Notes: generated from the sequence alone by a model not told the origin. DNA of 64,000 nt from Candidatus Eiseniibacteriota bacterium (GCA_963762255.1 CAVXKA010000003.1:288001-352000), one strand, 5' to 3'. Counted from the stretch's first letter, positions 42,217-63,966 are shown. Numbers and translations are program-made.

Positions 42217-42217
<1 letters not shown>
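40787..42217 (-). CDS. actC: alternative complex III subunit C (NrfD-like)
   Basis: [49 protein letters not shown]. Confidence 0.93.
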
Positions 42218-45227
<3,010 letters not shown>

Positions 45228-45231
<4 letters not shown>

Positions 45232-45869: not shown

Positions 45870-46075
45870 GTCTTGTTTCCGTCCCCCTCGGGGTCGGCCT
45901 GCGCGGAAGCCCGCTGGGCGGGGTGGGTCAGTGCGTACCCGGGACAGGCCCCCCGCAGATTCGCCGACAATTGCAGTTTGATGAACGGTGACCCATAACG
46001 GCAACCGATGGGTCGACAAGGGATTGGCAATGCAACCGGTCGCCGGGAGCGACCGCAGATGAAAACCGACGGCGG

Positions 46076-47052: not shown

Positions 47053-47660
47053 TCGTCGTCGTCCATGGACTTGCGCCCCTGGAGCGCGCGGGCGAGCGTG
47101 GCCTGGTCGGAGTACTCGAGGTCGCCCCCGACGGGGATGCCGCGGGCGATCCGGGTCACCCGCACCGCGCTCTCCTTGAGAAGATCGGCGAGAAAGTGCG
47201 CGGTGGCCTCGCCGGGCGGGTTGGGATTGGTGGCGAGGATGACCTCACGAACCTCACCGTACTTGACGCGCTCGATGAGTTCGCGCGCCCGGATGTCGTC
47301 CGGTCCCATGTTCTCGAGCGGGTTAAGCGCTCCACGCAGCACGTGGTACTGCCCCCGAAACCCGCCGCTCGCTTCGACCGCGAGCACGTCCATCGGCTGC
47401 TCGACCACGCAGATGACGTCGCGCTGTCGTTTCTGATCGCGGCAGATAAGACAGGGATCGTCCTCGGTGAAGTTCCCGCAGACGGTGCAGGTATGCACCT
47501 GCTCCTTCACCGCGCGGATCGCTTCGGCGAGCGCCAGCGCCTCTTCACGCGGAGCCTTCAGAAGGAAGAACGCGAGACGTTGCGCGCTCTTGCGGCCCAC
47601 GCCGGGCAGCTTGCTGAGCTCGTCGACCAGGGTCTCCACGGAACGGCTTGAGAACTGCAT
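47049..47660 (-). CDS. recR: recombination mediator RecR
   Basis: KLPGVGRKSAQRLA, C4 zinc finger, CVVE, YHVL, EVILATNP, GEATA. Confidence 0.97.
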   Translation of the reverse strand: MQFSSRSVETLVDELSKLPGVGRKSAQRLAFFLLKAPREEALALAEAIRAVKEQVHTCTVCGNFTEDDPCLICRDQKRQRDVICVVEQPMDVLAVEASGGFRGQYHVLRGALNPLENMGPDDIRARELIERVKYGEVREVILATNPNPPGEATAHFLADLLKESAVRVTRIARGIPVGGDLEYSDQATLARALQGRKSMDDDE

Positions 47661-47678
47661 GGGCGGGTTTGCCGGCGC

Positions 47679-47999
47679 CTAGAACATGCCGGGGAGCCCC
47701 ATCCCCCCGGTTGCTTTGGCCATTTCCTTCTGCATGAGCTCCTCGGCCTGCCGGCGCGCTTCACTGAACGCGGCCATCAGCATGTCCTCGAGCATCTCGA
47801 CGTCCTCCGGATCGACCGCGTCCGGCTTGATCTTGACGGACAGCAACTCCTGCTTGCCGTTCATGCGCACGGTGACCATGCCTCCGCCGGCCGTGCCCTC
47901 CACCTCGCGGCCGGCCAGATCCTCCTGGACGCGCGCCATCTTGGATTGCATCTCCTGGGCCTGCTTCATCAGCTTGCCCAGGTCTCCCATCCCCTTCAT
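47679..47999 (-). CDS. ybaB: YbaB/EbfC nucleoid-associated protein
   Basis: MKQAQEMQ, GTAGGGMV, DPEDVEMLEDM; dnaX-ybaB-recR synteny. Confidence 0.95.
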   Translation of the reverse strand: MKGMGDLGKLMKQAQEMQSKMARVQEDLAGREVEGTAGGGMVTVRMNGKQELLSVKIKPDAVDPEDVEMLEDMLMAAFSEARRQAEELMQKEMAKATGGMGLPGMF

Positions 48000-48054
48000 G
48001 GTGTCGCTCTCCTGATCGTTTGGAAGTCCGTGTTGCGGCGCGCGGGCGAGCGCT

Positions 48055-49881
48055 CTAGGGAAGCACCTCGCCGTCGAACATGTCGAGGGCCTTTTGCAGC
48101 ATCGGCTCGTCGTTGAAGAGCTGCCCCATGCTGCGCGTGTCCTTCGCCGGGGGGGGAGGCGGCGGTTCATCCGCAGGGGCCGCCTCCTTCGTGACGGGGG
48201 CCGCCTCCTTTGCAGCGGGGGGCGCCTCCTTCGTCTCTTTCGCCTCTTTCGTCTCTTTCGCCGCCGCAGCCGGCTTCGGGGCGGACTTCGGCGCTACGGT
48301 CGGGCCCGCTTTCGGCGCTGCCCCCGAGGCCGCTTTCGGCGCGGCAGGTTTCGAGGCGCCCTCGATGCGCACCTCCGGCGTCTTCACGCCGAGGCCCCCA
48401 AGAAGCTCGCGGAAGAGCGTCTGCGTCTCGGGATCGCGCAGGATCTGCGTGAGCAGTCCTGCCCCCGAGCCGGCCCTGACCCGGAGCGCGCCGTCCGCGT
48501 CCGCTCCCGCGAACTCCGTTGCGTGGAGCGTTCCCCACAGCCGCATCGAGCGCGTGCGCAGCGCTTCGAGGAAGGCCCCCCACACGCCGCCCGGCTCCGA
48601 GGGGCGCGGCGGCGCGGGTGCGGGACGTGGCGCGGCGGGCGTTGCCACTGCCGCCTGGGCCGGCGCTTCCCCGCCCAATCGCGCCTCCAGATCCACCAGG
48701 CGCCGCGCGATCTCGGCGAGCGGCACCCGAGCCGCCGACTGCGCCATCTCAGCCAGCGCCAACTCCAACGTCAGCCGCGGATGATCGCTGCGCCGCAGGG
48801 ACACCGCGGTCTCGGCGGCGCGGTCCACCATCTCCACGAGCGTCTCGCGCGGGTACTTCTCGGCCTGGGCGCGATAGCGCGGAATCTCCGACTCCGGGAT
48901 GTCCAGGATGGAGGCAAGCGCCGGGTCGATGCGCAGGAGGAGCAGGTCGCGCCAGTGCGAGGTCAGGCTCTCGGCGACTTCACCCAGGTCGGCGCCTCTG
49001 GCGTATACCTCGTCGAGGAGCCGCAACGCTCCGGCAGCGTCGGCCGCAGCGAGGAGATCGCCGAGCACGAAGCAGAAGTCCGAGCCCACCAGGCCCAGCG
49101 TGCGCTCCACCACCGCGCGGTCCACCGGGCCGTCGGCGGCGGAGATGATCTGATCCATGAGCGAGAGCGCGTCGCGGAGCCCGCCGGCGGCGCGGCGCGC
49201 GACCAGGGCCAGCGCCTCGGGGGTGACCTCCACATGCGGCGTCTCTTCCCCGGTGGCCTTGTTCTGCTCGTCGATGGTCCGGTTCTCGCGCGCGAGGACC
49301 TCGGTCAACCGCGCGGAGATCTCGCGGGCCGGGATACGCGCGAAATCGAAGCGCTGGCACCTCGACAGGATCGTCCCCGGAACTTTGAAAGGCTCCGTGG
49401 TGGCGAAAACGAAGATCACGTGCTTGGGCGGCTCCTCGAGGGTCTTCAGGAGCGCGTTGAACGCCTCCGTGGTGAGCATGTGCACTTCGTCGATGATGTA
49501 GACCTTGTAGCGCATGCCCGACGGCGCGTAGCGCACGTTCTCGCGAAGCTCGCGCACCTCGTTGATGCCGCGGTTCGAGGCGCCGTCGATCTCGAGCACG
49601 TCGAGGCTGCGTCCGCTGGTGATGTCGAGGCAGGGCGTGCACACGTTGCACGGAGTGGCGGTCGGACCCTGCTCGCAGTTGAGCGCCTTGGCGAGGATGC
49701 GGGCGGCGGTGGTCTTGCCGACACCGCGAGGGCCGCAGAAGAGGTAGGCGTGGGCGACGCGATCGACCGCGATCGCGTTGGCCAGCGTCTGGGTGACGTG
49801 CTTCTGGCCGACGACGTCCTCGAAGGATTGCGGACGGTACTTGAGGGCCAGAACCCGGTACGACTCGGATGCCTTTGCCAT
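48055..49881 (-). CDS. dnaX: DNA polymerase III subunit gamma/tau
   Basis: KYRPQSF, GPRGVGKTT, EIDGASN, IDEVHML, NALLKTLEEPP, SRCQ, RDALS; Pro/Ala-rich C-terminus. Confidence 0.96.
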   Translation of the reverse strand: MAKASESYRVLALKYRPQSFEDVVGQKHVTQTLANAIAVDRVAHAYLFCGPRGVGKTTAARILAKALNCEQGPTATPCNVCTPCLDITSGRSLDVLEIDGASNRGINEVRELRENVRYAPSGMRYKVYIIDEVHMLTTEAFNALLKTLEEPPKHVIFVFATTEPFKVPGTILSRCQRFDFARIPAREISARLTEVLARENRTIDEQNKATGEETPHVEVTPEALALVARRAAGGLRDALSLMDQIISAADGPVDRAVVERTLGLVGSDFCFVLGDLLAAADAAGALRLLDEVYARGADLGEVAESLTSHWRDLLLLRIDPALASILDIPESEIPRYRAQAEKYPRETLVEMVDRAAETAVSLRRSDHPRLTLELALAEMAQSAARVPLAEIARRLVDLEARLGGEAPAQAAVATPAAPRPAPAPPRPSEPGGVWGAFLEALRTRSMRLWGTLHATEFAGADADGALRVRAGSGAGLLTQILRDPETQTLFRELLGGLGVKTPEVRIEGASKPAAPKAASGAAPKAGPTVAPKSAPKPAAAAKETKEAKETKEAPPAAKEAAPVTKEAAPADEPPPPPPAKDTRSMGQLFNDEPMLQKALDMFDGEVLP

Positions 49882-49958
49882 GGTTCTCTTCGCCCCCATC
49901 GCCTCATCCCGCCGCGGTCGGACACACCGACCGCGCCGGGCGGGCCTTCAGAAGAAAG

Positions 49959-50229
49959 GGGTCGTGCACCCGCTGTCGACCATCGCCGTACGCCGGCCGC
50001 AAGCAGCCAGCTCGGGCCAGGGACACCGACGGCACACCGAGCGTCTTGCTTACCGCTGCTACCTTCCGGTCCTCACGGGGTTCACAATGCTCGGTTGCGT
50101 CGGACCCGGCCTTCAACGCCGCCGTCTCTTACGGCCCGCACGCCCGACGAGGGCCTCGAACGGGAATTCAGCCCCGCTATAGCGGATTGCGGATGCAGGG
50201 CACCGCTAACTCCCCGCCTAGCACGACCC
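49959..50229 (-). ncRNA. ffs: large bacterial signal recognition particle RNA (with Alu domain)
   Basis: About 270 nt. The 5' GGGTCGTGC pairs with the 3' GCACGACCC; Alu-like GGGGAG..GCGGTGCCCTG; helix 8 GTGAGGACCGGAAGGTAGCAGC; upstream of dnaX. Confidence 0.92.
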
Positions 50230-50277
50230 GCAAACAGACCGGTTCCGATCGGCCACTGCGGCAGGCGCCGACAAGAT

Positions 50278-50353
50278 TGGTGGAGATGAGCGGGATCGAA
50301 CCGCCGACCTCCTCGTTGCGAACGAGGCGCTCTCCCATCTGAGCTACATCCCC
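50278..50353 (-). tRNA. tRNA-Ala(CGC)
   Basis: GGGGATGTAGCTCAG..CCTCG-TTCGCAA-CGAGG..GGTTCGATC..CTCCACCA, 76 nt, G3:U70. Confidence 0.96.
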
Positions 50354-50475
50354 AAAACAGCTTCGCGAGCCGGATTCGTCCCCGGGCGGGAGCCCGGGGA
50401 CGATCGCGAGCGACGTATTCTCCCACATCGGTGCGGGTGCGGGCAACAGCCGCAACACACGGCGTGCTGCGGCTA

Positions 50476-50567
<92 letters not shown>

Positions 50568-50643
50568 GCAAAACCATAGGGCGAGTGGGCGAACGAAACT
50601 GGCAAACCCACAGCCGGAGATCCACGACCGCCGCGCTATCTTC

Positions 50644-50842
<199 letters not shown>

Positions 50843-51000
50843 GCGAAAGCCGGAATACGAAACCCCGCAATCGGATGGGCCGCATGTCCTGCGGGGGCCG
50901 GCGACCCAGGTCCAAAGCGGGCGCCGGATTATAGCGGAAACGCTCCCCGTGGGGCGAGGGAGTTTGCGGCCACCGTCCACGAATCCGCCGCTGCCGCCCC

Positions 51001-51507
51001 CTACGAATCGGTGCGCGCGTCGCGACGCAGGCGCTCGAAGAAGGTCTTGAGCAGGAGACCGCATTCCTCCGCCAGCGGTCCGGGGACGATCTCGGTGTGG
51101 TGGTTGAGCGCCTCGTGCCCCGAGACGTCGATCACCGACCCCAGCACGCCCCGCTTGGGATCCCTGGCCCCATACACCAGGCGACTCACGCGGCCCAGGA
51201 AGATCGCCCCGGCGCACATGAGGCAGGGCTCCAGCGTCACGTAGAGCGACGACCCTTCGATCCGCCAGCTCTCGAGCGTGTTGGCGGCGGCGGTGATGGC
51301 CAGCACTTCGGCGTGGGCGGTGGGGTCCTGCAGCGCCTCGGTGCGGTTGTGACCGCGCCCGAGAATGCGTCCACCCGAGACCACCACGGCCCCCACCGGT
51401 ACCTCGCCCTCCTCCGCGGCCAACTGCGCCTCGGCAAGGGCGAGCTGCATCCATCGCAGATCCTCCTCAGGCGTTGGCACGATCGGGGAAGCGCCGGGAT
51501 CTATCAC
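51001..51507 (-). CDS. tadA: tRNA adenosine(34) deaminase
   Basis: EVPVGA, DPTAHAE, TLEPCLMC, GARDPK, FF..LRR. Confidence 0.94.
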   Translation of the reverse strand: MIDPGASPIVPTPEEDLRWMQLALAEAQLAAEEGEVPVGAVVVSGGRILGRGHNRTEALQDPTAHAEVLAITAAANTLESWRIEGSSLYVTLEPCLMCAGAIFLGRVSRLVYGARDPKRGVLGSVIDVSGHEALNHHTEIVPGPLAEECGLLLKTFFERLRRDARTDS

Positions 51508-51519
51508 GCGCAGGCTCGA

Positions 51520-52242
51520 TCAGGGGGTCTTGCCGCCCGCGGCGGGCGCGGCCGAGCCGGTCAGGTTCGGCATGGTCGCCACCGCCTCGTTCGCGGCTTC
51601 GATCGCCACTTTCTCGATCAGCGGCGGGTCCGGCACCGAGCTGGTGCTGGTCGTTCGCGCCTCGCCCGACATGGTGGAGCGGACGTTGAAATCGGGATTG
51701 TAGGGCGGCGATTTGGCGAGCTTCGTGTGGTTGGCCGCCCACAGGAGCGTCGCATCGGGAGCGTACATCTCCACGGTCAGCCCCACCGTGGTGTTGGAAG
51801 TGCCCTCCTGGGTCGGTTCGAGCTTGAGACGTTCCCACTTGCTGACGTCCATGCACAGCACCGCGTCGTTGCCGGTCGCGTCGAGCAACTTGCCGAGCGG
51901 GGCCGCGTCGATGAGCCGTCGCTTGCGCCAGCTCTCCGCCACCCGGCTGTAGTCCTCCTGGACTCCCGCCTGCCGCACCTCGGACTCGAACATCTCCACC
52001 GTCGAGATCACGTACTTGGTGTTGGCCCCCATCGCCTGAAGGATGTAGTTGTACATCACGTCGGCGTCCGGGTTGCCTGAGGTATTCGTGAAGGTGAGCA
52101 CGGCCACCTGCTGCACTTGATAGTCTTGAGCGTTCGGGGCGAGGTCCACCTTGACCTTCACTCCTGCGCTCCCGCCCCCGCTGGACGCCTGACATCCCGC
52201 CAACAGCAACGCCGCCGACATCATTCCGATCCATCGTCTCAT
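51520..52242 (-). CDS. hypothetical lipoprotein (possibly TolB-N/CsgG-like fold)
   Basis: Lipobox LLAGC; VAVLTFTN and ..LLW.. pattern. Function unknown. Confidence 0.7.
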   Translation of the reverse strand: MRRWIGMMSAALLLAGCQASSGGGSAGVKVKVDLAPNAQDYQVQQVAVLTFTNTSGNPDADVMYNYILQAMGANTKYVISTVEMFESEVRQAGVQEDYSRVAESWRKRRLIDAAPLGKLLDATGNDAVLCMDVSKWERLKLEPTQEGTSNTTVGLTVEMYAPDATLLWAANHTKLAKSPPYNPDFNVRSTMSGEARTTSTSSVPDPPLIEKVAIEAANEAVATMPNLTGSAAPAAGGKTP

Positions 52243-53081: not shown

Positions 53082-54158
53082 TTAGGAAGCCGGGCTTCTC
53101 GGCGGGTGCCGCTCGACGAGGCGCCCTTCGAGATCCGGCGTCATGGAGACATGCCCCGCGTCATCCACCAGCACCGCACCAACACCGAGGCTTTCCGCGA
53201 GCGCCAGACCGCGCTTAGCTCCGAGCACCATGATCGCCGTGGAGAGCGCATCGGCCAAGGTCGCGTCGGGAGAGACGGTGGTCACGCTGCGCAGTCCCTT
53301 CGAGGGCATCCCGGTCCTGGGATCCAGAATGTGGTGATAGCGCACGCCGTCCAGAACGAAGTAGCGCTCATAGTCGCCGCTGGTGGAGGTGGAGGCGTCG
53401 GTGACGTCGAGCGTGGCGAAGTAATCCTCCGGCTCCCCACGCGGGTCGCGAATGCCGACGCGCCAGGGCTTCCCGTCCTTGTGCCCCCCCGCCATCACCT
53501 GGCCGCCGCCGAGAATGAGAAAGTCTCGCACGCCGCGCGCACGCAAGAGCTCTGCGGCGCGATCGAGCGCGTAGCCCTTGGCGATCCCACCGAGGCCAAT
53601 CTTCATGCCCGCCACCGGGAGATAGACCGTGCCCAGGGAGTCGCTCACCACGACCTTGCGGTAGTCGACAAGCGCGATGCGGGCGGCCACGTCTGCGGGA
53701 TCGGGCCCGCGCGGCTCGGCCGCCTTGAAGTCCCACAGTCCCCAGAGCGCCGCCCACGAGATCTCGAACGCACCGTCGCTGAGCGCACCGATCTCGATCC
53801 CGCGCCGGATCACATCGCGAAGATCCGCCGGCACCGCCACCGGGCGCACGCCAGCCTCGCGGTTCACCGCAGAGAGGGGCGATGTGTCCTTCCACTCGCT
53901 CATCCGGGTGTCCACCTGCCGGAAGACGGCGAACACGGAATCAGCGAGCGCGGCGGCGGCGTCCCCTTCCGGCAAGGTCACTCGAAACGTGGTGGCCATG
54001 ACGTCGGCGGAGAAGGTCGTGAACCCGGAGGGCGCTGCTGCCTCCCGCGTGCGCGGCCACTTGGGAGCGATGAGCCGTCCTGGAGAGGTCAAGAAGAGAA
54101 CGAGGGCGGTCACCGCGCTGAACGCGAGAACCAGACCCAACGAGGCGGATCGTTTCAC
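53082..54158 (-). CDS. apbE: FAD:protein FMN transferase
   Basis: VMATT, LGGIAKGY, WRVGIRDP, STSGDYE, YHHILDPRTG, ADALSTA. Confidence 0.93.
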   Translation of the reverse strand: MKRSASLGLVLAFSAVTALVLFLTSPGRLIAPKWPRTREAAAPSGFTTFSADVMATTFRVTLPEGDAAAALADSVFAVFRQVDTRMSEWKDTSPLSAVNREAGVRPVAVPADLRDVIRRGIEIGALSDGAFEISWAALWGLWDFKAAEPRGPDPADVAARIALVDYRKVVVSDSLGTVYLPVAGMKIGLGGIAKGYALDRAAELLRARGVRDFLILGGGQVMAGGHKDGKPWRVGIRDPRGEPEDYFATLDVTDASTSTSGDYERYFVLDGVRYHHILDPRTGMPSKGLRSVTTVSPDATLADALSTAIMVLGAKRGLALAESLGVGAVLVDDAGHVSMTPDLEGRLVERHPPRSPAS

Positions 54159-54173
54159 GAGCGCCTGGGCTCC

Positions 54174-54345
54174 CTAGTGATGGTGGGAGTGTGCGTGGTG
54201 GGAATCATGGTGGTGGGTGCAGCGCCCGCACTTGCCCTCCACCCCGGGCTGGCCGGGATCGTGCTTGCCTACCCACCGCTGCACAACGACCCAGGCACCG
54301 CACAGAGCACCCCAGACCGAGTATGGGGAGGAGGAAATGAAGCAT
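54174..54345 (-). CDS. unannotated ~56-aa membrane-anchored CxxC/His-rich microprotein (NqrM-like?); one apparent extra G
   Basis: Removing one G from GGGG (54310-54313) gives MLHFLLPILGLGALCGAWVVVQRWVGKHDPGQPGVEGKCGRCTHHHDSHHAHSHHH*, which fills the rnfA-apbE gap. Confidence 0.65.
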
Positions 54346-54348
54346 GCT

Positions 54349-54927
54349 CTAACTCCCGCTGAAGAGGCCGGCGAAGCCCATGAAGGCCAGGGAGAGGATT
54401 CCCGAGATGAGGAGCACCATCGCCGTCCCTTTGAGCAGGGAGGGGATGTTGGACAACTCGGCCTCCTCGCGGATTCCCGCCATCAACACCAGCGCCAGGG
54501 CGAGCCCCGCGCCGCTGCCGATGGCGAAGACCAAACCCTCGATCAGATTGTACTCCCGGCTGGTCTGGAAGAGCGCCAGCGCCAGGATCGCGCAGTTGGT
54601 GGTGATGAGCGGCAGATAGATGCCGAGCGCGCGGAAGAGTCCGGGCGAGAGCTTCTTGATCACCATCTCCACGAACTGCACGGTGCTCGCGATGACCACG
54701 ATAAAGCTGATGAGGCGCAGGTACGAGGCGTCCCCGAGAATGTACTTGTTGAGCCCCCACACCGCAATCGAAGTGATGATCATCACGAAGATGTTGGCGA
54801 GGCCGAGGCGGAACGCGGTCTGCAGGTTGTTAGACACGCCGAAGAACGCGCACAGCCCCAGGAAGTACACCAGCGTGAAGTTGTTGATGAGGAGCGAACT
54901 CATGAGGATCCAGACGAGTCTGTCCAT
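54349..54927 (-). CDS. rnfA: Rnf complex subunit A
   Basis: NNFTL..FLGLC, VQFVEM, GIYLPLITTNCAIL, AGIRE, AFMGF. Confidence 0.94.
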   Translation of the reverse strand: MDRLVWILMSSLLINNFTLVYFLGLCAFFGVSNNLQTAFRLGLANIFVMIITSIAVWGLNKYILGDASYLRLISFIVVIASTVQFVEMVIKKLSPGLFRALGIYLPLITTNCAILALALFQTSREYNLIEGLVFAIGSGAGLALALVLMAGIREEAELSNIPSLLKGTAMVLLISGILSLAFMGFAGLFSGS

Positions 54928-54930
54928 GCT

Positions 54931-55578
54931 CTAGATCGCCTCCTGAGTCAGCTTTGCCGCCAGCTTCTGACGGCGTTCGATGATCGCCGAGATCGCATAG
55001 AGCAGAACACCGAGGCAGAGGAACCCGCCGGGAGGAAGGATCATGATGATCCATGGTTCGTAATTGGGCCCGAACAGGTTGACCCCGAAGATGGAACCAC
55101 TCCCGAGAATCTCCCGGATCGCCCCAAGGATGAGCAGGGCACCGGTGAACCCGATCCCGTTCCCCACCGCGTCGCCGGTGGATGGCAAGACCGGGTTATG
55201 GGCGGCGAAGGCCTCGGCGCGGCCCAGAATGATGCAGTTCACCACGATGAGGGCGATGAAGGCGGCCATCGACTTGTGGGCGGCGGGAGCGATCGCCTGC
55301 AGCGTGAAGTCCACCACCGTCACGAAGGTGGCGATGATGATGATGTAGGTCGAGATGCGCACCTGTCGGGGGATGAACCGGCGCAACGCCGAGATCATGT
55401 AGCTCGAACAGACAAGCACGAAGGTCGTAGCCACCCCCATGATGACCCCGTTGAGGGCGGTGTTGGTTACGGCAAGGGCGGGGCACATGCCGAGGATCTG
55501 GCGAAACGTGGGGTTCTCCGGCCCAATCCCCTTGATCATCTCGCTGTTGAAGGTCAGCTTCTTTCCCTGGGCGGACAT
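54931..55578 (-). CDS. rnfE: Rnf complex subunit E
   Basis: ENP..LGMCPALAVT, IIIATFVT, LIVVNCIILGRAEAFA, REILG, LPPGGF. Confidence 0.94.
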   Translation of the reverse strand: MSAQGKKLTFNSEMIKGIGPENPTFRQILGMCPALAVTNTALNGVIMGVATTFVLVCSSYMISALRRFIPRQVRISTYIIIIATFVTVVDFTLQAIAPAAHKSMAAFIALIVVNCIILGRAEAFAAHNPVLPSTGDAVGNGIGFTGALLILGAIREILGSGSIFGVNLFGPNYEPWIIMILPPGGFLCLGVLLYAISAIIERRQKLAAKLTQEAI

Positions 55579-55580
55579 GT

Positions 55581-56228
55581 TCAATCCCCTCCTGCCGAGG
55601 CGCTCTCCGCGCCGGCGAGCGGTGGTTCCTGCCCGGGCGCGGGAAGCCGGCCGAGCCATTCCGCGTTGCCGGCGTTGATGATCTTCACGATCGCCTTCGA
55701 GGAGATCGTTGCGCCGGTGATGGCGTCCACCTCGTTCGGGTTCGTCCCGTGCCCCTTGATGGCCACAACGTCCGGCGTCACGGCGAGATCGTGGAACTCC
55801 GCGAGGAACTTCTCGTCCTTGAGAATCTTGTCGCCGAGGCCCGGCGTCTCCCGGCTGTCCAGAACCTGCATTCCCACGATCTTCCTATCGCTGGTCTTGA
55901 AGCCGTAGATGAGCTGAATCGTGTCCTGGAAGCCCGGCCCTTCGCTGGGAATCGCATAGCCCACGAAGACCCCGGTCGAATCGTAGGCGGCGTAGATGAC
56001 CTTCTCTCCCTTGGCCGGTGCCTCGACCGAGATGAGCTTGGAGTCACGGAAGACCAGGGGCTGGAGCTTCGAGGAGCCGGGCAGCACGTTGAAGACCGCC
56101 AGCTCGAGGGCCGCCTGTTTGTTGGCGGTGATCTTGGGAAGGGTAATCAGATAGGAGCCGACGATGGCGAGGCCGGAGATCAGACCGGCGAAGGTGAGGG
56201 TGGCGACGAGTTTCCACATGCCGCTCAT
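55581..56228 (-). CDS. rnfG: Rnf complex subunit G (FMN-binding)
   Basis: N-terminal TM, GFQDTI, ETPGLG, DAITGATISS flavinylation motif. Confidence 0.93.
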   Translation of the reverse strand: MSGMWKLVATLTFAGLISGLAIVGSYLITLPKITANKQAALELAVFNVLPGSSKLQPLVFRDSKLISVEAPAKGEKVIYAAYDSTGVFVGYAIPSEGPGFQDTIQLIYGFKTSDRKIVGMQVLDSRETPGLGDKILKDEKFLAEFHDLAVTPDVVAIKGHGTNPNEVDAITGATISSKAIVKIINAGNAEWLGRLPAPGQEPPLAGAESASAGGD

Positions 56229-57235
56229 GCCGTGCGCCTCCCGTGCCCGAAGGCCCGCGATTGGTTCGAGCGCTCGATGAGCGGCGACACCGCGTTCATG
56301 ATGAGGATGGCGTACATGACTCCTTCGGGGAGACCGCCCCACAATCGGATCAACACGACGAGGACTCCGATCCCCATGCCGAAGAGCCACGCCCCGCGCG
56401 GCGCGATCGGCGAGGTGACCGGGTCGGTGGCCATGAACACCGCCCCGAACATGAGCCCGCCGGAGAAAAGCATGAAGAGGGCGCTCGGATACCGCTCGGC
56501 GTTCACCAGATGCATGATGCCGCTGAAGATGCCCACGGTGAGGATGATCGAGGCCGGGATGCGCCAGTCGAAGGTGCGCCGCATGACGAGGACCACGCCG
56601 GCAAGAAGGATCACCGCCGCGCTCGTCTCCCCCAGGGATCCTGCCACGTTTCCACGGAAGAGATCCATGGCGGGCGCGAACTGGTGCGCGAACTTCATGA
56701 AATTGAGCGGCGTCGCCGTGGTCACCACGTCGGGAGGCGCCTGAAAGAACGGCACCGCGAAGTTGCTGGCATGAATCGACGCGAGCCCGGTGGGCGGCGA
56801 CCACGTGGTGATGGCGGTCGGGAAGGCCGCCTGCAAAAAGGCCCGCCCCACGAGAGCCGGGTTGAACAGGTTGTGCCCGAGCCCTCCCCAGATCACCTTG
56901 CCGAGCGAGATGGCGATGATCCCGCCCAGGAACGCCATCCAAAGCGGGAAGCCCGGAGGGAGGGTGAGCCCGAGCAGGATGCCCGTCAGGATCGCGCTGC
57001 CATCCTTGAGGGTGCGGGAGCGAGGTTTCGTATTCGAAGCCATCCACTCGGTGGCCATCGTGCCCAGGGCCGCGCTCACGGTCACCAGGAGCGAGCTGAT
57101 CCCGAAGTACCAGATGGACACCAGCCACACCACACAGGCGGCGAGGATGACGTCCAGCATGAGCCGCGGCGTCGTCACCCCTTCGCGCAGGAACGGCGCG
57201 GTCTGGACAAGGAGCCGCGGAGAGCGATCGGTCAC
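56225..57235 (-). CDS. rnfD: Rnf complex subunit D
   Basis: DGSAILTG, GGLGHNLFNPA, TTATP, GSLGETS, FMATDPVTSP, PEGVMYAIL. Confidence 0.94.
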   Translation of the reverse strand: MTDRSPRLLVQTAPFLREGVTTPRLMLDVILAACVVWLVSIWYFGISSLLVTVSAALGTMATEWMASNTKPRSRTLKDGSAILTGILLGLTLPPGFPLWMAFLGGIIAISLGKVIWGGLGHNLFNPALVGRAFLQAAFPTAITTWSPPTGLASIHASNFAVPFFQAPPDVVTTATPLNFMKFAHQFAPAMDLFRGNVAGSLGETSAAVILLAGVVLVMRRTFDWRIPASIILTVGIFSGIMHLVNAERYPSALFMLFSGGLMFGAVFMATDPVTSPIAPRGAWLFGMGIGVLVVLIRLWGGLPEGVMYAILIMNAVSPLIERSNQSRAFGHGRRTA

Positions 57236-58569
57236 GTCGTCTTCCCCTTCTTCTTCTCCCGGATCGCCGACTTCGCCACCCGGATGAGCTGCACGATCGG
57301 GATGCCCGAGGGGCAGGCGAAGCTGCACGAACCGCATTCCACGCAATCCATGACGTGGAAGTCCGGCAGGTCGTCGAATCGCCGCGCCCGCGCGAGCCGG
57401 CCGAGGCGGGACGGGTTCAGGAACTGCGGGCACGCATCCACGCAGCGGCCGCAGCGGATGCAGGTGTACTCGTTGGGGATCGCGGCCTCGGCCTCCGTGA
57501 AGGCGAGGAGACCCGAGGTGCCCTTGAGCACCGGCACGTCCAGGCTGGCAAGCGGCGCCCCCATCATCGGGCCGCCCATGATGACCTCGCGGGTGTTCTC
57601 GTCGAGACCCCCGAGATGATCGAACACGGCCCGCACCGGCGTCCCCACCGGGACCAGGAGGTTGGCCGGCCGCTTCACTCCGGGGCCGGCGACGGTGACC
57701 ACGCGCTCGATGAGCGGGATCCCGTTGTCGAAGTAGTCGGCGATGGCCGCCATGGTGCCGACGTTGTTGACGACGATCTCGACGTCGATCGGGAGCTTGC
57801 CCGTCGGAACCTCGACGCCGAACACCGCCCGAATGAGCATCTTCTCCGCGCCCTGCGGGTACTTCACCTTGACCGGCACCACGCGCACCGCCGCGCCCGC
57901 CGGCACCGCACGTTGCAGCGATTCCACCGCGTCCGGCTTGTTCATCTCGATGCCAATCACGGTCTCGTCCACGCCGAGCCGCGCCGCCACGATTTCGATG
58001 CCGCGGAGGATCGCTTCCGGCCGCTCGATCATCACGCGATGGTCGGTGGTGAGATAGGGCTCGCACTCCGCGCCATTCACCAGGAGCCGGCGGATCTTCT
58101 TCCCCTCCGGCACCTTGTACTTGACGTGGGTCGGGAAGGCCGCGCCGCCCATGCCCACGAGTCCGGCGCGCTGGATGTGCGAGATGAACTCGTCGGCGGT
58201 GAGGCCCCGCCAGTCGATGGGAGGATGATGGGGCAGGCGCTGGGTAGCGAAGGGATCGGCCTCGATCTCGATCGCCTCGACCAGCTTGCTGTTGGGATGG
58301 TGCCGAGCCGCGATCGCCACCACCCGCCCGGTCACCGGACTGTGAAGCGTGGTGGAGACGAATCCCCCCGGCTCCGCAATCATCTGCCCGCGCATCACAC
58401 GCTCCCCCGCCCGCACCACGGGGCGGCAGGGCGCGCCGGTGTGCTGGCTCAACGGCAGCACATAGCGCTCCACGAACGGCATCCGCTCGATGGCGAGATC
58501 CTTGGTCTCTTCCTTGTGGCCGTCGGGATGCACCCCGTGGCGGAAGGTCTTGCCGAGAATGCTGGTCAC
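57232..58569 (-). CDS. rnfC: Rnf complex subunit C
   Basis: QHTGAP, HSPVTG, GMGGAAFP, NGAECEPY, KYPQGAE, GGPMMG, CIRCGRC..CP, CVECGSC..CP. Confidence 0.95.
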   Translation of the reverse strand: MTSILGKTFRHGVHPDGHKEETKDLAIERMPFVERYVLPLSQHTGAPCRPVVRAGERVMRGQMIAEPGGFVSTTLHSPVTGRVVAIAARHHPNSKLVEAIEIEADPFATQRLPHHPPIDWRGLTADEFISHIQRAGLVGMGGAAFPTHVKYKVPEGKKIRRLLVNGAECEPYLTTDHRVMIERPEAILRGIEIVAARLGVDETVIGIEMNKPDAVESLQRAVPAGAAVRVVPVKVKYPQGAEKMLIRAVFGVEVPTGKLPIDVEIVVNNVGTMAAIADYFDNGIPLIERVVTVAGPGVKRPANLLVPVGTPVRAVFDHLGGLDENTREVIMGGPMMGAPLASLDVPVLKGTSGLLAFTEAEAAIPNEYTCIRCGRCVDACPQFLNPSRLGRLARARRFDDLPDFHVMDCVECGSCSFACPSGIPIVQLIRVAKSAIREKKKGKTT

Positions 58570-58604
58570 GTTGAGTTCCTTATCGCGATCCGGGAGCGAG
58601 TCGC

Positions 58605-61600
58605 CTAGACCTCGTCCCCGCCGTTGCCCGACGGTCGCGAGACGATGGTCATGAGCTTCGTGCGGATCTGACGCGCAAGCTCGGCCTTGAGTTGATACTG
58701 CTGATTCGCGAGCCGTGCCTCATAGTCCCGCCGAAGCGCGTCGACCTGCGCGGCGTGCTCGATCTCCTTGGTGGCGAGTGCCTCGATATCCGCCTCCGCG
58801 GGCTCGACGCGCGGCGCTCCCATCCCGGCCAGAGCCTGGAGCGTGCGCCATGCGGCGAGCCGCTCACCGGCGGCGCCCACGAGCGCGGGATCGACCTGGA
58901 AGGTTCCGTCCGGACCGATGACGACCGGCGTCTTGTCTTCGCGATCCTCGGCGGAGAGAGCGAGATACTCGGCGAGCGGAGTCGGCTCCGAAGCGTTGCC
59001 CGCAACCGGCGAGAGATGGCCGGAGAGACGCCGCTCGCCGCGCGCCCACGATGCCGGCGTGACCGCGTTGCCGTCCGCATCCGTGCTCCAGATCGCCGCC
59101 GGATCGGGGTTGCCGTCCACGCTCACACGCAGCGCGGAGCCGCCAACCGGATCGTGCGCCGCGGTGAAAAGCGGACAGGTGCGCGAAAGGACCGCCCCCT
59201 GCGCGCGCTCGAGCGTGCGATCGGGGGCAAAGCCATGGCGCTCGGGACTCGGCGCGTACACGCGCACGACGGCGGGACCGTCATGGAGTACGGCCGCCGT
59301 GACCCCCGCGGCGAGATGGCGCGAGTGGGCGATGGAACTTTGCACCACCAGGGCACGACTCCCCGCCAACGCCAGGAGCCCGAATTCGGGCGCGGCCGGG
59401 GCCGGCTTGGTCCCCCGGGCGCCGCCGCCTTGCGAGATGCCAATCTCGCGACGGAAGGATGCCTCGGCGAGGAGCACCGCCTTCACCGGCAGATCGTCGT
59501 TCAGAAGCTCGGCGAATCCGGCGATGGCATCACCGGCGAGAGCGGTCTCGTCGGCCACGAAGAAGAGCGGCGGACAGGCGCGGCGTTCCTCGGCGGTCAG
59601 ATCGCGCCATGTGAGACGGGCCAGCGATGCGCCGGCCACCGCGGCCTCGGAGGGGCGTTCGACCTCGAGCCGCGCGCGGCGAACCGTTCGCATGCCGTCC
59701 AGCGCCTGACGGAGCTGCCCTTCGAGCACGCCGCGGGCCAGCGCGAGGCCGTCGGCCTCGCCGCGCAGGGTCACCGGGACGCCGAAGGGATTGTTCGGAA
59801 ACGCGCCCACCCACCCCGCGTCCGCGGAGGGAGCGAGCACCAGGCCGAACTTCGCCACGCCGGCTCCGGTCGCGCCCACCGTGAGCCGCTGGTGGAGATC
59901 GGCCAGGTCGCGGGCCACGTCAACGAGCCGCCGCATGCGCAGGACGTCCACGCGACCGGTCTCGAAGGCGGTCTCTACACGCGCGGTCAGCGCGGCGAGA
60001 TCGGTGTCGGGGCGCCCCATCGCGTCGAGTCCGTCGGCGAGGGCGTCGAGGTCGGTGGTGGGCAGCGCGGAGGCGAGCCCCTCGCGAATCGCCTCGCTCA
60101 GCTTCACGCGCAGCTCTTCGATTTCAGCGACGTACTGGTTGACGGCCGGAGCAATGGCATCGAGAGCGATCCCCAGGATCTGACGCAGCGCGATCTTCTC
60201 GCCGGAGCCGGCCTCGGCGCCGTCGCCGCCGATCATGGCCAGGTTCGCCTCGCGCCGCAGCATCGCGGCAGCCAGGGGCCCGACCTCGGCGTGCTCGCGG
60301 GCGCGCGCGCACGCGGCCTCGGAGGGCTCCGGCAACTCGTGGAGCAGCCGCCATCCCTCGCGTGAAGCGGCGGCACGAGCGGGCTCCTCGGCCGCGCGGG
60401 TCAACGCTTCGGGCTCGCAGACCGTCACGCAGAGACCGCATCCCTTGCAGGCATCGGGGTTGATCGCGAGCGAGAAGAGCTCTCCGCTCCCCTTCGCCGT
60501 TGCTTCTGGCTCCTCGAAAAACACTTGGGTCCGCGTGACGGGCAGCGCACCGACGGCGTCGCGCACCGCGCGGAACGCATCCTCCACGCCTTTGCGCCGG
60601 TCCTCGGTGAGCGTCATCTTGCTCGTGACGTGGGCAAAGGCCGCGTCGAGCAGAGCTCCGGCGCCGATACCGGGGGTGGCGGAGGCGGCGAGCTCTTCGC
60701 CCACGCGGGCGGCGAACTTGCCGAGCGTCATGCGAAGCCCTTCCGCGGAGCGACCGCTCCGCGCGGCCAGAGCCATTCCGCGCTCGACGAAGACCGAGGG
60801 GGACCACACCCCGGCGGCCAACGCACTGTCCGGACATCCGCTCCAGCACGCACCGCATCCGGTGCAGCGCGCGGCGTCGAAGGCGGGCAGCATCCGGCGC
60901 CCGCGCGACACGTCGTGGAACGACGACGAGAGCGCGGGGAGGGTGCCGGTCGCGAAGTACGGGTCGGGGTGGAAACCGCCCCCCGCACCCTCGCTCTCGG
61001 GCACTCCCACTTGATCCCAGAATCGGGGAAGACTGTCCACGGTTTCGTCGACGTGGCCTGCGCGGCGAACCGAAGCCGGGGGCTCCGCCTCGACCACGAC
61101 TTCCTCCCCCGCGGTCGGCGCCGGCAACCCGGTCGTCTCGACCCGCGCGGCGAAATCGAATCCCGCCTGCAGCTCGCGGATGCGCGCATCCGTCTCCGCT
61201 TCCGGCGCGTCTTCAAAGAGCTTCCGGCGGGCCGCGAGAAGCTTGCGCGGGTTGATCACGACCACGCCGAGCGTATTGAGCGCACCGAACACCGCGCCCA
61301 GCATCCGCTCGTCCCGCAGGGTCGACGCATCGAGCGGCTCCGGTGTCCCGGGGGCTTCATAGCCCTTGGCGGTGAAGAGATGCAGTTTGCGCCGGAGGAT
61401 GTCGCCGCGCACCCGCGCGGGAAGCGTCTTCCACACCGAGCCGATCGACGCGTCGTGCTCGAAGAGGATCGCGCCGTCGTCGCGCACCCGATCGGCAAAA
61501 TCCGCCGGCACCGCGATCCCGGCAGGAGCCGCCCACACGGCGAGGTGGGCGCGGAGGTCGTCGCCCGGATCCTTGAGCGGGATCGGCGCGTGAATCAGAC

Positions 61601-63122
61601 GCTCTTCCACGATCGTGTCGAAGCGCTCGGCAGGAAACGCGGAACGCACGCGGAGGTGCCCGCCGAAGAGTTGATGGAGAAGGAGCGCGGCCTCGCGCGC
61701 CTGCCCCTCGCCACCTTGTCCTGCGAGAGAGGAGACCTGGATCACGACTCCCCCCTTGGGGAGGAGATCGGGCGGCGCGTCCTTCGAACGCAGGCCGAGC
61801 CTCGCCGCCTGAGGGTAGCCGCGTTTGAGCGCGTCGTGGAGCACCTGCCGCTTCGGGTAGGGGCTCGCTGCAGAGGTCAGGTCGAGCCCCAAGAAAACAG
61901 GTGAAGTGGGAGCCTTATCCAATTGAAGACAAAGCGCTTCCAGATCCTGCAAGCGCACAGGGAAACCGCCCAATCCGGCGAGGACCGAGACGAGCCGCGG
62001 CCGATCCTTCTCGGAAAGGACGCCCGCACCGGGATGAGCCTCTTTGCCGTAACGGCCGTTCTCGATCGCCCGTTCCACCGTCGAACGCAGCTCGCGCACC
62101 AGCGGCGCCTCCGCACCTAACGGCAGCGAGACGCGCTCCAGAACCGCGACCGTCTTGCCGCCGAGGAGCGCGGCGAGTGCCTCGGCCGGGAAGGGGCGCA
62201 AGGTCCGAAGCCCGATCACCCCCACCTTGACCTTGTGACGATGGCGCAGATGATCGGCGGCCAGCTCCGCCGCCTCGATCACCGAACCCATGGCCACCAG
62301 CACCAGCGTCGCGTCTTCCACATGGTGGCTGCTCACCGCGGCGTGGCGGCGACCGGTCTCCTTGTAGAAACGCTCGAAGGCCTGCTCCAGGATCGCGGGA
62401 ACATGTGGATCGAAGTAGGCTGCCCGCCCTGCCTCGCCCAAGGCGAACGTGTCGGCGCGCTGCACCGCTCCGTTCAACACCGGTCGTTCGAGGTCGTGCC
62501 GGCGCGGCAGGCGCAGGCGGTGCTGGCCGAAGAGAAGCTCTTGCGACGGAGTGGGCGCGTGCCGCACCGCGTTCGCGCGGCCGAGGATCGCCTCGATGAG
62601 ATCGGGCGCGGGCATGCGCAGATCCTGCAGCGCCAGCGCGGTCTCGGCGGCGTCCATCGCCACCACGGCAGGGAGAAGCGCTTCCTCGGCGACCTGGCGG
62701 GCGATCAACGAGAAGTCCACCGCCTCCTGCGCGTTGGCCGCGACCAGGACGAGAGCGCCGGCGTCGGCCGCGGCGAAGAGCCCTGCGTGCCCGCTCCCCA
62801 CCCGCTCACCCGCGCCGGGAAGCGCGGTCGCGGTGACGTGCAGGACCATGGGCACCCTGCGTCCGGCAGCCTGAGCCAGCGCCGCGGTCCCGCGGGCCAG
62901 ATCGGCACCGTCGAGGAACGCGGTAGCGCGCACGCCGGAGAGGGCGAGGCCCATGGCCTCGCTCAGACTATCGGTGGCGTCGCTGATGAATCGCTCGGCC
63001 ACTTCCACGGCGTCCAGGCCGGTCTCCGCGCTCGGTTCACCCGCGCGCGCGCCGGGAGCGGTAGGGGGAACGCCGACCAAGCGGCGATACAGGCGGCGAG
63101 CGGACCCTGACAGGTCAGGCAT
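58605..63122 (-). CDS. 1505-aa pyruvate:ferredoxin oxidoreductase (NifJ-type) homologue with degenerate catalytic motifs
   Basis: PFOR domain order is recognisable (QEAVD, LVAMGS, LRPFP, YAP). Two intact ferredoxin motifs (CTGCGACWSGCP, CKGCGLCVTVC). YPITP, the GDG..NTGGQ motif and the proximal-cluster Cys residues are absent. Confidence 0.85.
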   Translation of the reverse strand: MPDLSGSARRLYRRLVGVPPTAPGARAGEPSAETGLDAVEVAERFISDATDSLSEAMGLALSGVRATAFLDGADLARGTAALAQAAGRRVPMVLHVTATALPGAGERVGSGHAGLFAAADAGALVLVAANAQEAVDFSLIARQVAEEALLPAVVAMDAAETALALQDLRMPAPDLIEAILGRANAVRHAPTPSQELLFGQHRLRLPRRHDLERPVLNGAVQRADTFALGEAGRAAYFDPHVPAILEQAFERFYKETGRRHAAVSSHHVEDATLVLVAMGSVIEAAELAADHLRHRHKVKVGVIGLRTLRPFPAEALAALLGGKTVAVLERVSLPLGAEAPLVRELRSTVERAIENGRYGKEAHPGAGVLSEKDRPRLVSVLAGLGGFPVRLQDLEALCLQLDKAPTSPVFLGLDLTSAASPYPKRQVLHDALKRGYPQAARLGLRSKDAPPDLLPKGGVVIQVSSLAGQGGEGQAREAALLLHQLFGGHLRVRSAFPAERFDTIVEERLIHAPIPLKDPGDDLRAHLAVWAAPAGIAVPADFADRVRDDGAILFEHDASIGSVWKTLPARVRGDILRRKLHLFTAKGYEAPGTPEPLDASTLRDERMLGAVFGALNTLGVVVINPRKLLAARRKLFEDAPEAETDARIRELQAGFDFAARVETTGLPAPTAGEEVVVEAEPPASVRRAGHVDETVDSLPRFWDQVGVPESEGAGGGFHPDPYFATGTLPALSSSFHDVSRGRRMLPAFDAARCTGCGACWSGCPDSALAAGVWSPSVFVERGMALAARSGRSAEGLRMTLGKFAARVGEELAASATPGIGAGALLDAAFAHVTSKMTLTEDRRKGVEDAFRAVRDAVGALPVTRTQVFFEEPEATAKGSGELFSLAINPDACKGCGLCVTVCEPEALTRAAEEPARAAASREGWRLLHELPEPSEAACARAREHAEVGPLAAAMLRREANLAMIGGDGAEAGSGEKIALRQILGIALDAIAPAVNQYVAEIEELRVKLSEAIREGLASALPTTDLDALADGLDAMGRPDTDLAALTARVETAFETGRVDVLRMRRLVDVARDLADLHQRLTVGATGAGVAKFGLVLAPSADAGWVGAFPNNPFGVPVTLRGEADGLALARGVLEGQLRQALDGMRTVRRARLEVERPSEAAVAGASLARLTWRDLTAEERRACPPLFFVADETALAGDAIAGFAELLNDDLPVKAVLLAEASFRREIGISQGGGARGTKPAPAAPEFGLLALAGSRALVVQSSIAHSRHLAAGVTAAVLHDGPAVVRVYAPSPERHGFAPDRTLERAQGAVLSRTCPLFTAAHDPVGGSALRVSVDGNPDPAAIWSTDADGNAVTPASWARGERRLSGHLSPVAGNASEPTPLAEYLALSAEDREDKTPVVIGPDGTFQVDPALVGAAGERLAAWRTLQALAGMGAPRVEPAEADIEALATKEIEHAAQVDALRRDYEARLANQQYQLKAELARQIRTKLMTIVSRPSGNGGDEV

Positions 63123-63966
63123 TGTGTCTCCCGGTCACTCCGACTTCTTCAACGGTCGAAAATTGGTCCCCGACGACCCACTGGATGGCTCCGGTGGGGC
63201 ATCGCAAGGTGGCCTTGACGCTGGCCGGCCCGCCCGCCGAATAGTCCACGACAGGCAGGTTGTTCGCCATTCGCACAAGACCGGGGGCTGCATCCTGAGC
63301 GCACCGCCCGCAGGCGTCGCAAACCACCTTGCAGACGCGGCGCGCTTCCTCGGCGGCGAGGGGCGCGGAGCACTGCACGATGAGGTGGTGACTCAGGGGA
63401 AGGATCTCGAAGAGATCGCGCGGGCAATCGTCCACGCAGTCGCCGCAGGCGGTGCACTTCGCGGTGTCCACCACCGGCAGCATCTCCGCGTTCATGTGGA
63501 TGGCGTCGAACGTGCATGAACGCTCGCAATCGCCATAGCCGAGACAGCCCCACGAGCACTCGAGCCCGCCGCCGCCCACGATGTGCGCGCCGCCGCAGTT
63601 CTCATAGCCCTCGTAGCTGGCCACCCGCAGCGCATGCCCGAGGCCCCCGGCGCAGTGGAGGCGGGCCACCCGCTTCTCGGCGGCGCCCGCATCCACTCCC
63701 AGGTAGTCCGCGATGAGCTCGATACGCTCGGCGTTCGATACCGTGCACTTGCTCGGCTTCGCTGCCCCGCTCACGATCTTCTCGGCCAGACCATGGCACC
63801 CCGGCTCCCCGCAGGCACCGCAGTTCGATCCGGGGAGCATCATCTCCACCTTCTCGATGCGCGGGTCCTCTTCCACCTGCAGGTACCGGTATGCAATGGC
63901 AAGCACGACCCCGAAGAAGAGGCCGAGCCCCCCCATGATCAGGCCGGCGGACAGGATGCTGTTCAA
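63115..63966 (-). CDS. rnfB: Rnf complex subunit B (polyferredoxin)
   Basis: TM, EEDPR, LPGSNCGACGEPGC, GCLGYGDC, CTACGDC..CP, CDACGRC; TTG start. Confidence 0.93.
   Translation of the reverse strand: MNSILSAGLIMGGLGLFFGVVLAIAYRYLQVEEDPRIEKVEMMLPGSNCGACGEPGCHGLAEKIVSGAAKPSKCTVSNAERIELIADYLGVDAGAAEKRVARLHCAGGLGHALRVASYEGYENCGGAHIVGGGGLECSWGCLGYGDCERSCTFDAIHMNAEMLPVVDTAKCTACGDCVDDCPRDLFEILPLSHHLIVQCSAPLAAEEARRVCKVVCDACGRCAQDAAPGLVRMANNLPVVDYSAGGPASVKATLRCPTGAIQWVVGDQFSTVEEVGVTGRHNA

Follow-up and report, generated by a model that had tools for sequence, protein, structure and literature searches.

We analyzed a 64,000-nucleotide stretch of DNA from Candidatus Eiseniibacteriota bacterium (GCA_963762255.1 CAVXKA010000003.1:288001-352000; hereafter the window) and found that its rnf operon contains, between rnfB and rnfC, a gene for a full-length, catalytically degenerate paralogue of pyruvate:ferredoxin oxidoreductase (PFOR). 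We refer to this predicted protein of 1505 amino acids (P0001), encoded from an ATG start at 58605..63122 on the minus strand, as B. Comparison with other genomes suggests that a distinct Rnf subtype has, in the slot between rnfB and rnfC, a PFOR-derived protein that is of the active type (PFOR-A) or is the dead B, together with a 2-oxoacid:ferredoxin oxidoreductase (OFOR) and a tethered ferredoxin domain. In the usual view, the electron partner of Rnf is a soluble pool of ferredoxin, and to our knowledge no described Rnf has a PFOR-derived subunit.

The flanking genes lie on the same strand. rnfB (63115..63966; 283 aa from a TTG start; PF04060 (FeS) 51.4 bits; TIGR01944 79.3 bits against a cut-off of 68.7) encodes an N-terminal membrane helix, an FeS domain and ferredoxin-type domains, and rnfC (57232..58569; 445 aa from a GTG start) scores 529 bits with TIGR01945 against a cut-off of 246. 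The end of rnfB and the beginning of B share 8 nt (ATGCCTGA), a GGGAG box lies 7 nt upstream of the B start, and 35 nt separate the B stop codon (TAG) from the GTG of rnfC. These coordinates, the overlap and the collinearity with PFOR-A reported below confirm a preliminary description of the window, made from its sequence, which had placed a full-length PFOR homologue over the rnfB stop and 35 nt before rnfC. Altogether, a single compact operon, rnfB-B-rnfCDGEA-apbE, occupies the minus strand of 53082-63966.

Contigs from four metatranscriptome libraries, derived from a relative about 92% identical, cover parts of B, bridge rnfB to B and B to rnfC, and at the window end reach the last codons of PFOR-A. 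Since the contigs give no strand and DNA carry-over is possible, these bridges hint only weakly that the genes are co-transcribed in a close relative. Gaps in the coverage of B (e.g. 59243-60377) carry no information, and a joint at 57782>62146, seen in one contig with 21 nt on one side, was set aside as a chimera or as belonging to another organism.

The relationship of B to PFOR is evident along its whole length. B is collinear with PFOR-A over B residues 58-1503 (BLASTP, 29% identity, E 5e-168, 1495 columns), and because of this match and the more than 300 full-length homologues found, a chance resemblance to PFOR is excluded. The reading frame has no internal stop over 4.5 kb, as originally noted. 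The Pfam search of B detected a partial POR_N domain (profile positions 50-196 of 231), PFOR_II and two Fer4 motifs, with no match to domain III (POR), EKR or TPP_enzyme_C (PF02775), and the PFOR equivalog model TIGR02176 gave 95.8 bits, below its cut-off of 911.35. Profile searches matched PFOR and Fer4 families only and showed no homology of B to RnfA, B, C, D, E, G or H. In the PDB, B residues 57-352 aligned with residues 71-351 of D. africanus PFOR (E 1.9e-17).

Structure prediction agreed with these alignments. AlphaFold2 modelled the N-terminal half of B with the fold of PFOR domains I-III (pLDDT 82, pTM 0.84) and the C-terminal half with that of domains V/VI (pLDDT 80, pTM 0.79). The best solved-structure matches were the PFORs of D. 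africanus (1b0p) and M. thermoacetica (6cin): Foldseek aligned the N-terminal half with 1b0p_A (TMq 0.69, rmsd 4.5, E 2e-36) and with PorC 2raa (TMt 0.73), and the C-terminal half with 6ciq/6cin at E about 1e-11 (8e-12) and with OFOR beta subunits at TMt 0.52. PFOR domains I, II and III correspond to residues ~29-661 (61140..63038, minus strand; Pfam POR_N and PFOR_II, AlphaFold2, Foldseek), domain I being shortened by a 40-residue deletion. They are preceded by a basic N-terminal helix (residues 5-16; 63075..63110, minus strand; family consensus SAxRLxRRLxG; modelled as a helix at low pLDDT), which is conserved in the B family and absent from PFOR-A. The helical tail proposed earlier takes the form, in the AlphaFold2 model, of one long helix of 54 residues (1441-1494; 58641..58802, minus strand) following an RL..W..LQ.LAG motif; this motif and the long helix are common to B, PFOR-A and a further protein of the locus, orf806.

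We then read the catalytic motifs of B against an alignment with D. africanus PFOR, against PFOR-A, and in a family table of 34 B and 3 A-type proteins. In OFORs, a GDG...N motif binds Mg-thiamine diphosphate (ThDP), a conserved Glu activates N1' of ThDP, the Cys residues of a CXGC loop ligate the proximal [4Fe-4S] cluster, and Thr31 and Arg114 of D. africanus PFOR hold the 2-oxoacid carboxylate (PMC5020499, from the available part of the article; for motif roles in PFOR also the available part of PMC13768988). The former ThDP/Mg motif of B (residues 1189-1225; 59448..59558, minus strand) is lost: GGDGAM...SNTGGQ of A is replaced by ADETAL...RR and a gap opposite SNTGGQ, and the motif is missing from the consensus of the 34 B proteins. 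The former proximal-cluster loop (residues 965-976; 60195..60230, minus strand) reads GGDGAEAGSGEK in B versus GGDGSCMGCGEK in A, with AEAGSGE instead of SCMGCGE at its core; both Cys are replaced, and the B form is nearly invariant in the family. Residues 1289-1297 (59232..59258, minus strand) read YAPSPERHG where A has YTPCQAEHG, with loss of the Cys, and family-wide no Cys stands at this position or at the B position equivalent to GCSSVWG of A.

At the position of the pyruvate-carboxylate Arg (Arg114), HVTARA has become HVTATA in B (Thr99; 62826..62828, minus strand), as also in its closest relative, L016. The YPITP loop and the activating-Glu segment are absent from P0001 through the 40-residue deletion, likewise common to L016, and the B family consensus at the Glu segment is gprg versus EGEH in A. 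All motif readings of the preliminary description (HVTATA, AEAGSGE, the ThDP/Mg loss, YAPS and the missing YPITP/Glu segment) thus held. Its account of the last segment applies to the family in part: the segment is degenerate throughout, most B proteins retaining a degenerate version, the outright deletion is specific to the lineage of the window, and the Arg is retained in 22 of the 29 other B proteins. The degenerate YPITP/Glu region spans 19-31 residues in P0001 (residues 40-58), L032 and L045, compared with 55-60 (mostly 59) in the other 25 aligned B proteins, and such repeated shortening would fit a segment without remaining function.

Judged by sequence, B therefore differs from a catalytic PFOR or OFOR (EC 1.2.7.x) at the ThDP/Mg motif, the activating Glu, the proximal Cys and the Thr/Arg pair as well as in its TIGR02176 score, and the whole B family is predicted to be catalytically dead, unable to bind ThDP or the proximal [4Fe-4S] cluster. 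Its motifs indicate that it keeps the 2x[4Fe-4S] ferredoxin-type domain (PFOR domain V). Both of the motifs reported as intact, C753-x2-C756-x2-C759-x3-C763-P (60831..60866, minus strand) and C892-x2-C895-x2-C898-x3-C902 (60417..60449, minus strand), are indeed so, and all eight Cys are invariant or at least 90% conserved in the family. B thus has the domain order (I-II-III-IV-V-VI), the fold and the medial and distal cluster motifs of one-subunit PFORs (D. africanus 1B0P, M. thermoacetica 6CIN). Unlike them, it has no ThDP/Mg motif, activating Glu or proximal Cys, falls below the TIGR02176 cut-off, sits in an rnf operon, and has two additions, a helical insert ahead of domain VI and a C-terminal extension that includes the long helix. 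The former domain VI and extension contain residues invariant in the family (H1269, H1289, H1296, W1359, E1363 and R1365), and so many invariant His, Trp, Arg and Glu might point to a new catalytic activity needing neither ThDP nor the proximal cluster. These residues are equally explained by folding and interfaces, and Pfam/NCBIfam profiles recognize no cofactor motif in B; we consider a new activity very improbable.

B belongs to a sizeable family. Of 8000 candidates scored in a protein database search, 312 were homologues at E<=0.001. Among the 120 homologues listed, almost all are 1400-1600 aa long and 36-50% identical to B, and none carries a precomputed PF01558 (POR) or PF02775 (TPP_enzyme_C) match. 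Database names include "4Fe-4S binding protein", "pyruvate ferredoxin oxidoreductase" and "hypothetical"; we found no curated family model that separates B, and the ESM Atlas gives only generic names. Between B and its relative in L016 (77% identity), dN/dS was 0.18 overall and 0.15-0.34 per domain, with 0.09 for rnfC and 0.05 for rnfB in the same comparison.

Loss of the catalytic motifs and the deletion in domain I would also be expected of a decaying gene copy. We rejected this explanation, to which we assign a practically negligible probability, on the uninterrupted 4.5-kb frame, identity of about 40% across three phyla, the invariant cluster Cys, the confident fold and the dN/dS of 0.18, a check proposed earlier against near-neutral decay that here indicates a well-conserved gene. 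A maximum-likelihood tree (6 A, 19 B and 3 canonical PFOR sequences as outgroup; 1520 columns) recovered A+B, A and B each as monophyletic with SH-aLRT 100, A and B being sister clades apart from canonical PFOR, with B on a longer stem and its subclades following phyla. Outgroup locus L106, whose longest open reading frame (ORF) is not a PFOR, was left out of the tree, and B_L099 and B_L104 form long branches of unsure placement. With its motifs lost (34 B against 3 A proteins), purifying selection, a conserved family, a retained PFOR fold and a single origin, B can be classed from its sequence as a pseudoenzyme, in line with the non-catalytic role first proposed.

To examine the gene neighborhood, we used a synteny set of 64 loci from species-representative genomes (55 Pseudomonadota, 4 Acidobacteriota, 3 Planctomycetota and 2 unassigned), each count being restricted to loci whose sequence extends far enough in the direction concerned. 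Neighbors were scored on stop-to-stop ORFs with matches of at least 60 bits and fixed distance limits, and raw counts are given; ORF overlap caused false misses of rnfB in L052 and L066 and of rnfC in L043 and L045, where the genes are visible in the loci. rnfB lies within 3 kb upstream of B in 50 of 54 loci, rnfC within 4 kb downstream in 47 of 58, and rnfA downstream in 41 of 49. Upstream of rnfB, orf806 is present in 42 of 50 loci, itself preceded by a two-subunit OFOR (alpha/beta) in 32 of 40. The full arrangement korAB-orf806-rnfB-B-rnfCDGEA is found in each of Gammaproteobacteria, Planctomycetota and Acidobacteriota, and RnfB is 55-62% identical between phyla in B-type operons. The Pseudomonadota loci are nearly all gammaproteobacterial, from Chromatiales, Sedimenticolaceae, Thiohalomonadaceae, Thiotrichaceae, Woeseiaceae, and tubeworm and lucinid symbionts. 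B is thus built into the rnf operon, as originally described; being encoded there and conserved across taxa, it would count as an Rnf subunit on gene order.

In seven loci of Sedimenticolaceae and tubeworm symbionts (L077 at 646-1935, L027, L068, L071, L073, L078 and L079), a NuoF-like gene (FMN-binding 51K and NADH_4Fe-4S) precedes korAB-orf806-rnfB-B, and three of the seven have no following rnfCDGEA. These loci are possibly a variant with a different NADH module.

The genome of the window also encodes PFOR-A (P0123; 1669 aa; L015:1101-6110, minus strand; TIGR02176 410 bits, below the cut-off of 911), immediately outside the window; the stop codon of the gene starts at window position 64000. 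The gene lies directly upstream of rnfB, ending 33 nt before the rnfB start. PFOR-A has all PFOR domains and every catalytic motif, and its C-terminal part consists of the helical tail, an Ala/Pro-rich linker of about 45 residues and a single-cluster ferredoxin domain, Fer4_13. It is collinear with B over about 1450 residues and has the same insert, extension and tail, whereas B has neither the catalytic motifs nor the tethered ferredoxin domain. PFOR-A belongs to an uncharacterized, rnf-linked PFOR clade that is predicted to be catalytic, whose members come from its own genome, G007, G044, G047, L045 and L054. By pattern, 6 of these 6 proteins have the catalytic motifs, and the C-terminal ferredoxin domain is in frame in 5 of them; in L054 (8146-8634) the ferredoxin part lies in another frame, a frameshift or sequencing error.

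We scanned 206 genomes of the phylum to which we assigned the window, scoring two candidates per genome, so that a negative genome is one where the query in question found nothing. A-type proteins, 55-62% identical to PFOR-A, occurred in G007, G044 and G047, in each case within the slot (rnfB-A-rnfCDGEA), and B-type proteins in ten other genomes (G007, G009, G013, G014, G042 and G048-G052). G007 holds both operon types, with A and B in two separate rnf operons. The type of RnfC follows the content of the slot: B was found in 10 of the 11 genomes with an RnfC at least 59% identical to that of the window, A in all 3 genomes with one 48-51% identical, and neither in any of the 75 genomes at 47% or less, these counts coming from related genomes that are not independent samples. 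In G008 (C5:32939-34252), an rnfC of the B-linked type (59% identity) is interrupted by a single in-frame TAA, and the query used retrieved no B; this may be a decaying operon or an assembly error. As far as gene content and motifs can tell, the arrangements show that the slot between rnfB and rnfC is a functional one, holding either a predicted active-type A or a predicted dead B. The window's genome combines the two operon types in a hybrid order, korAB-orf806-A-rnfB-B-rnfCDGEA-apbE.

The preliminary description proposed that B pairs with an active 2-oxoacid oxidoreductase. This stands insofar as PFOR-A and a KorAB-type OFOR are both co-encoded upstream. A specific heterodimer of B with an active PFOR paralogue, here PFOR-A, would form an asymmetric dimer with one active half docked on RnfB. 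Consistent with such a dimer, PFOR-A lies 33 nt from rnfB and shares the tail motif and helix of B, the RNA-library contigs bridge A-rnfB-B, and PFORs of this kind are homodimers (PMC13768988, available part). However, apart from the window's genome, just 2 of the 50 informative loci hold PFOR-A alongside B, and in G007 A and B are in separate rnf operons. Because of this rarity and the arrangement in G007, the heterodimer could hold at most for the lineage of the window, and we consider it improbable; pairing with a PFOR paralogue as a general mechanism was rejected on the 2 of 50 loci. The constant companions of B are instead KorAB and orf806.

The KorAB-type enzyme is a two-subunit OFOR with an alpha/gamma fusion and a beta subunit (L015:8478-11341 and 11441-12133, minus strand; alpha subunit with TIGR03710, 2-oxoacid:acceptor oxidoreductase alpha, 500 bits against a cut-off of 483). 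A hemerythrin-domain gene lies directly upstream of the OFOR genes and could hint at oxygen sensing or protection. orf806 (P0124; 806 aa; L015:6169-8589, minus strand) has no Pfam or NCBIfam match. It nevertheless aligns with A, residues 364-740 matching domain VI together with the extension and tail (E 1e-46), and the profile of the orf806 family matches B over 628 columns of its C-terminal half (hhalign probability 100, E 3.5e-49). Missing from orf806 are the ThDP loop and those portions of domain V that bind clusters. By these alignments, orf806 is a third PFOR-derived, degenerate piece, corresponding to the C-terminal half. An N-terminal stretch of ~95 residues and a conserved motif, LRHFHL...YDYPLFL, are further features of orf806.

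A Fer4_13 ferredoxin domain ends 45 of 47 orf806 homologues, and the two homologues without it are those of the two loci that also hold PFOR-A. In the window's genome, likewise, orf806 is without the ferredoxin domain and PFOR-A carries Fer4_13. Fer4_13 therefore sits on either orf806 or PFOR-A, and each cluster seems to hold exactly one tethered ferredoxin.

From these observations, we interpret B with moderate confidence as part of an OFOR-Rnf assembly, in which it would serve as an Fe-S scaffold or wire with no catalytic function of its own. B, with orf806, would be a docking platform and a two-cluster electron wire joining an oxidoreductase to RnfB. The catalysts would be the co-encoded KorAB-type OFOR and, in the window's genome, PFOR-A as well. 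Two-subunit OFORs are without domain V, and an open pocket in them can receive an external ferredoxin (PMC5020499, available part). The ferredoxin domain on its long Ala/Pro-rich linker (on orf806 in most genomes, on PFOR-A here) could act as a swinging arm between the OFOR cluster and B/RnfB, and the shared tails of A, B and orf806 may hold the parts together. Electrons would then pass between 2-oxoacid/acyl-CoA and NAD(H) through Rnf, with no free ferredoxin pool. Physical association, electron route and direction are what we infer beyond the observed sequence and gene-order points. The wider proposal, an unrecognized respiratory supercomplex in which Rnf has a built-in KorAB (PFOR in some lineages), held by B and orf806 and served by a swinging-arm ferredoxin domain, is more tentative, and we put it somewhat short of an even chance.

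Alternatively, B may be a soluble protein, co-expressed with Rnf and unbound, serving as a large two-cluster carrier or, through domain III and the Arg, as a sensor of CoA, acyl-CoA or 2-oxoacid that tunes OFOR or Rnf. The Arg114 equivalent in 22 of 29 B proteins, the confidently folded domain III that matches PorC, and the loci in which B stands away from rnfCDGEA are in keeping with a soluble B. Opposed to it are the tight, translationally coupled rnfB-B pair conserved in three phyla and the tracking of B presence by RnfC sequence type; a 165-kDa protein would also be an odd diffusible carrier where a tethered ferredoxin is already encoded. On balance, we regard a soluble B as rather unlikely.

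Several points weigh against the scaffold or wire as we propose it. All counts rest on contigs of metagenome-assembled genomes (MAGs); in L035 and L057, B stands beside unrelated neighbors, and in L073, L077 and L079 (tubeworm symbionts and kin), korAB-orf806-rnfB-B has no rnfCDGEA within 10 kb. Within B, dN/dS is highest in the ferredoxin domain (0.21) and the tail (0.34). The retained Arg and the well-folded domain III would allow a ligand-binding or regulatory role. Contact between B and Rnf is a prediction, and co-folding of B 737-1439 with RnfB 38-283 from separate alignments scored 0.01 (mark 0.32), which counts neither for nor against binding. For the direction of electron flow, gradient-driven reductive carboxylation is very slightly favored, because the genome has pyruvate and 2-oxoglutarate dehydrogenase E1 genes in addition to an alternative complex III and a cytochrome oxidase.

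The remaining rnf genes, all on the minus strand, are rnfD (56225..57235; 336 aa from GTG 57235; PF03116 344 bits), rnfG (55581..56228; 215 aa; FMN_bind), rnfE (54931..55659, start not fixed; PF02508 209 bits) and rnfA (54349..54927; PF02508 178 bits), followed by the flavin transferase gene apbE (53082..54158; PF02424 277.6 bits). All six core rnf genes and apbE are present and ordinary by family profile. As the genome has no second rnfC, the organism has a single Rnf. G+C of the region is about 68-73%, and the nearest named relatives of both B and PFOR-A are Acidobacteriota MAGs, the basis of our phylum assignment. Further along the minus strand, 40787-46019 contains an alternative complex III-like cluster with a multihaem cytochrome c, an NrfD-like membrane subunit and an ActB-like protein of 1010 aa (42217-45249) with molybdopterin-binding and Fer4 domains, followed at 34619-37876 by SCO1/SenC, cytochrome oxidase subunit II with a fused cytochrome c, and subunit I; from these genes, the organism respires oxygen. 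Housekeeping genes (TadA-like deaminase, dnaX, ybaB, recR and pgpA) occupy 46564-51507 on the minus strand, and ORFs of 400, 147 and 240 aa with high third-position G+C and no Pfam match lie at 38069-39599 and 51520-52242, also on the minus strand.

Additions to Rnf are known, such as RnfH in Azotobacter and the cytochrome MmcA in Methanosarcina, and accessory proteins that alter the input or output side of Rnf are a familiar idea. The B-type operon shares its core genes and apbE with canonical RnfABCDGE, the PFOR-derived gene being its own. The closest functional analogue of the A- and B-type operons is the pyruvate:NADP+ oxidoreductase of Euglena and Cryptosporidium, in which PFOR is covalently fused to a soluble flavoprotein reductase and needs no free ferredoxin. 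There, too, PFOR is joined to its acceptor; here the link is co-encoding with a membrane ion pump rather than fusion, and B is non-catalytic by prediction. The molybdopterin-like part of NuoG and ActB of alternative complex III are oxidoreductase folds without a catalytic cofactor that keep an Fe-S or structural role. B resembles these in having lost its cofactor while keeping clusters or structure, but it is of another fold family, and its membership in a complex is a prediction.

Our literature search found no paper describing a PFOR-like gene in an rnf operon. The available parts of an Rnf/Nqr review (PMC12174285) mention no PFOR-derived Rnf subunit, and those of a November 2026 review of PFOR diversity (PMC13768988) mention no rnf-operon PFOR. 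The nearest report concerns the Riftia symbiont, in which expression of a "PFOR-like" gene falls along with that of korAB (PMC11636981, available part); if the gene is a B homologue, this would fit the cluster seen in L077. Several "PFOR" copies have been counted in Kentron (PMC6593406, available part), and proteins of Kentron (Candidatus Kentrum) are among the B homologues in our protein search, so B-type genes may be counted as pyruvate synthases in metabolic reconstructions.

If the proteins assemble as we propose, genes now counted as "PFOR" or "4Fe-4S binding protein" would gain their correct meaning, as B is predicted to be unable to act as a pyruvate synthase, and B would be a clear case of an enzyme turned scaffold in bioenergetics. 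The assembly would also explain how ferredoxin-dependent 2-oxoacid synthases occur in oxygen-exposed bacteria, including the thiotrophic symbionts of tubeworms, lucinid clams and ciliates. The cluster is carried by cultured hosts, namely Thiorhodococcus, Endothiovibrio and Sedimenticola; locus L067 is from Thiorhodococcus mannitoliphagus DSM 18266, and T. minor and Endothiovibrio diazotrophicus appear in the protein database search with B. Should the supercomplex be real, turnover of 2-oxoglutarate or pyruvate would be coupled directly to NAD(H) and the membrane potential, and reductive carboxylation, or energy conservation as 2-oxoacids are oxidized, would become possible with no need for an oxygen-exposed ferredoxin pool in aerobic and microaerobic sulfur oxidizers, symbionts, Planctomycetota and Acidobacteriota.

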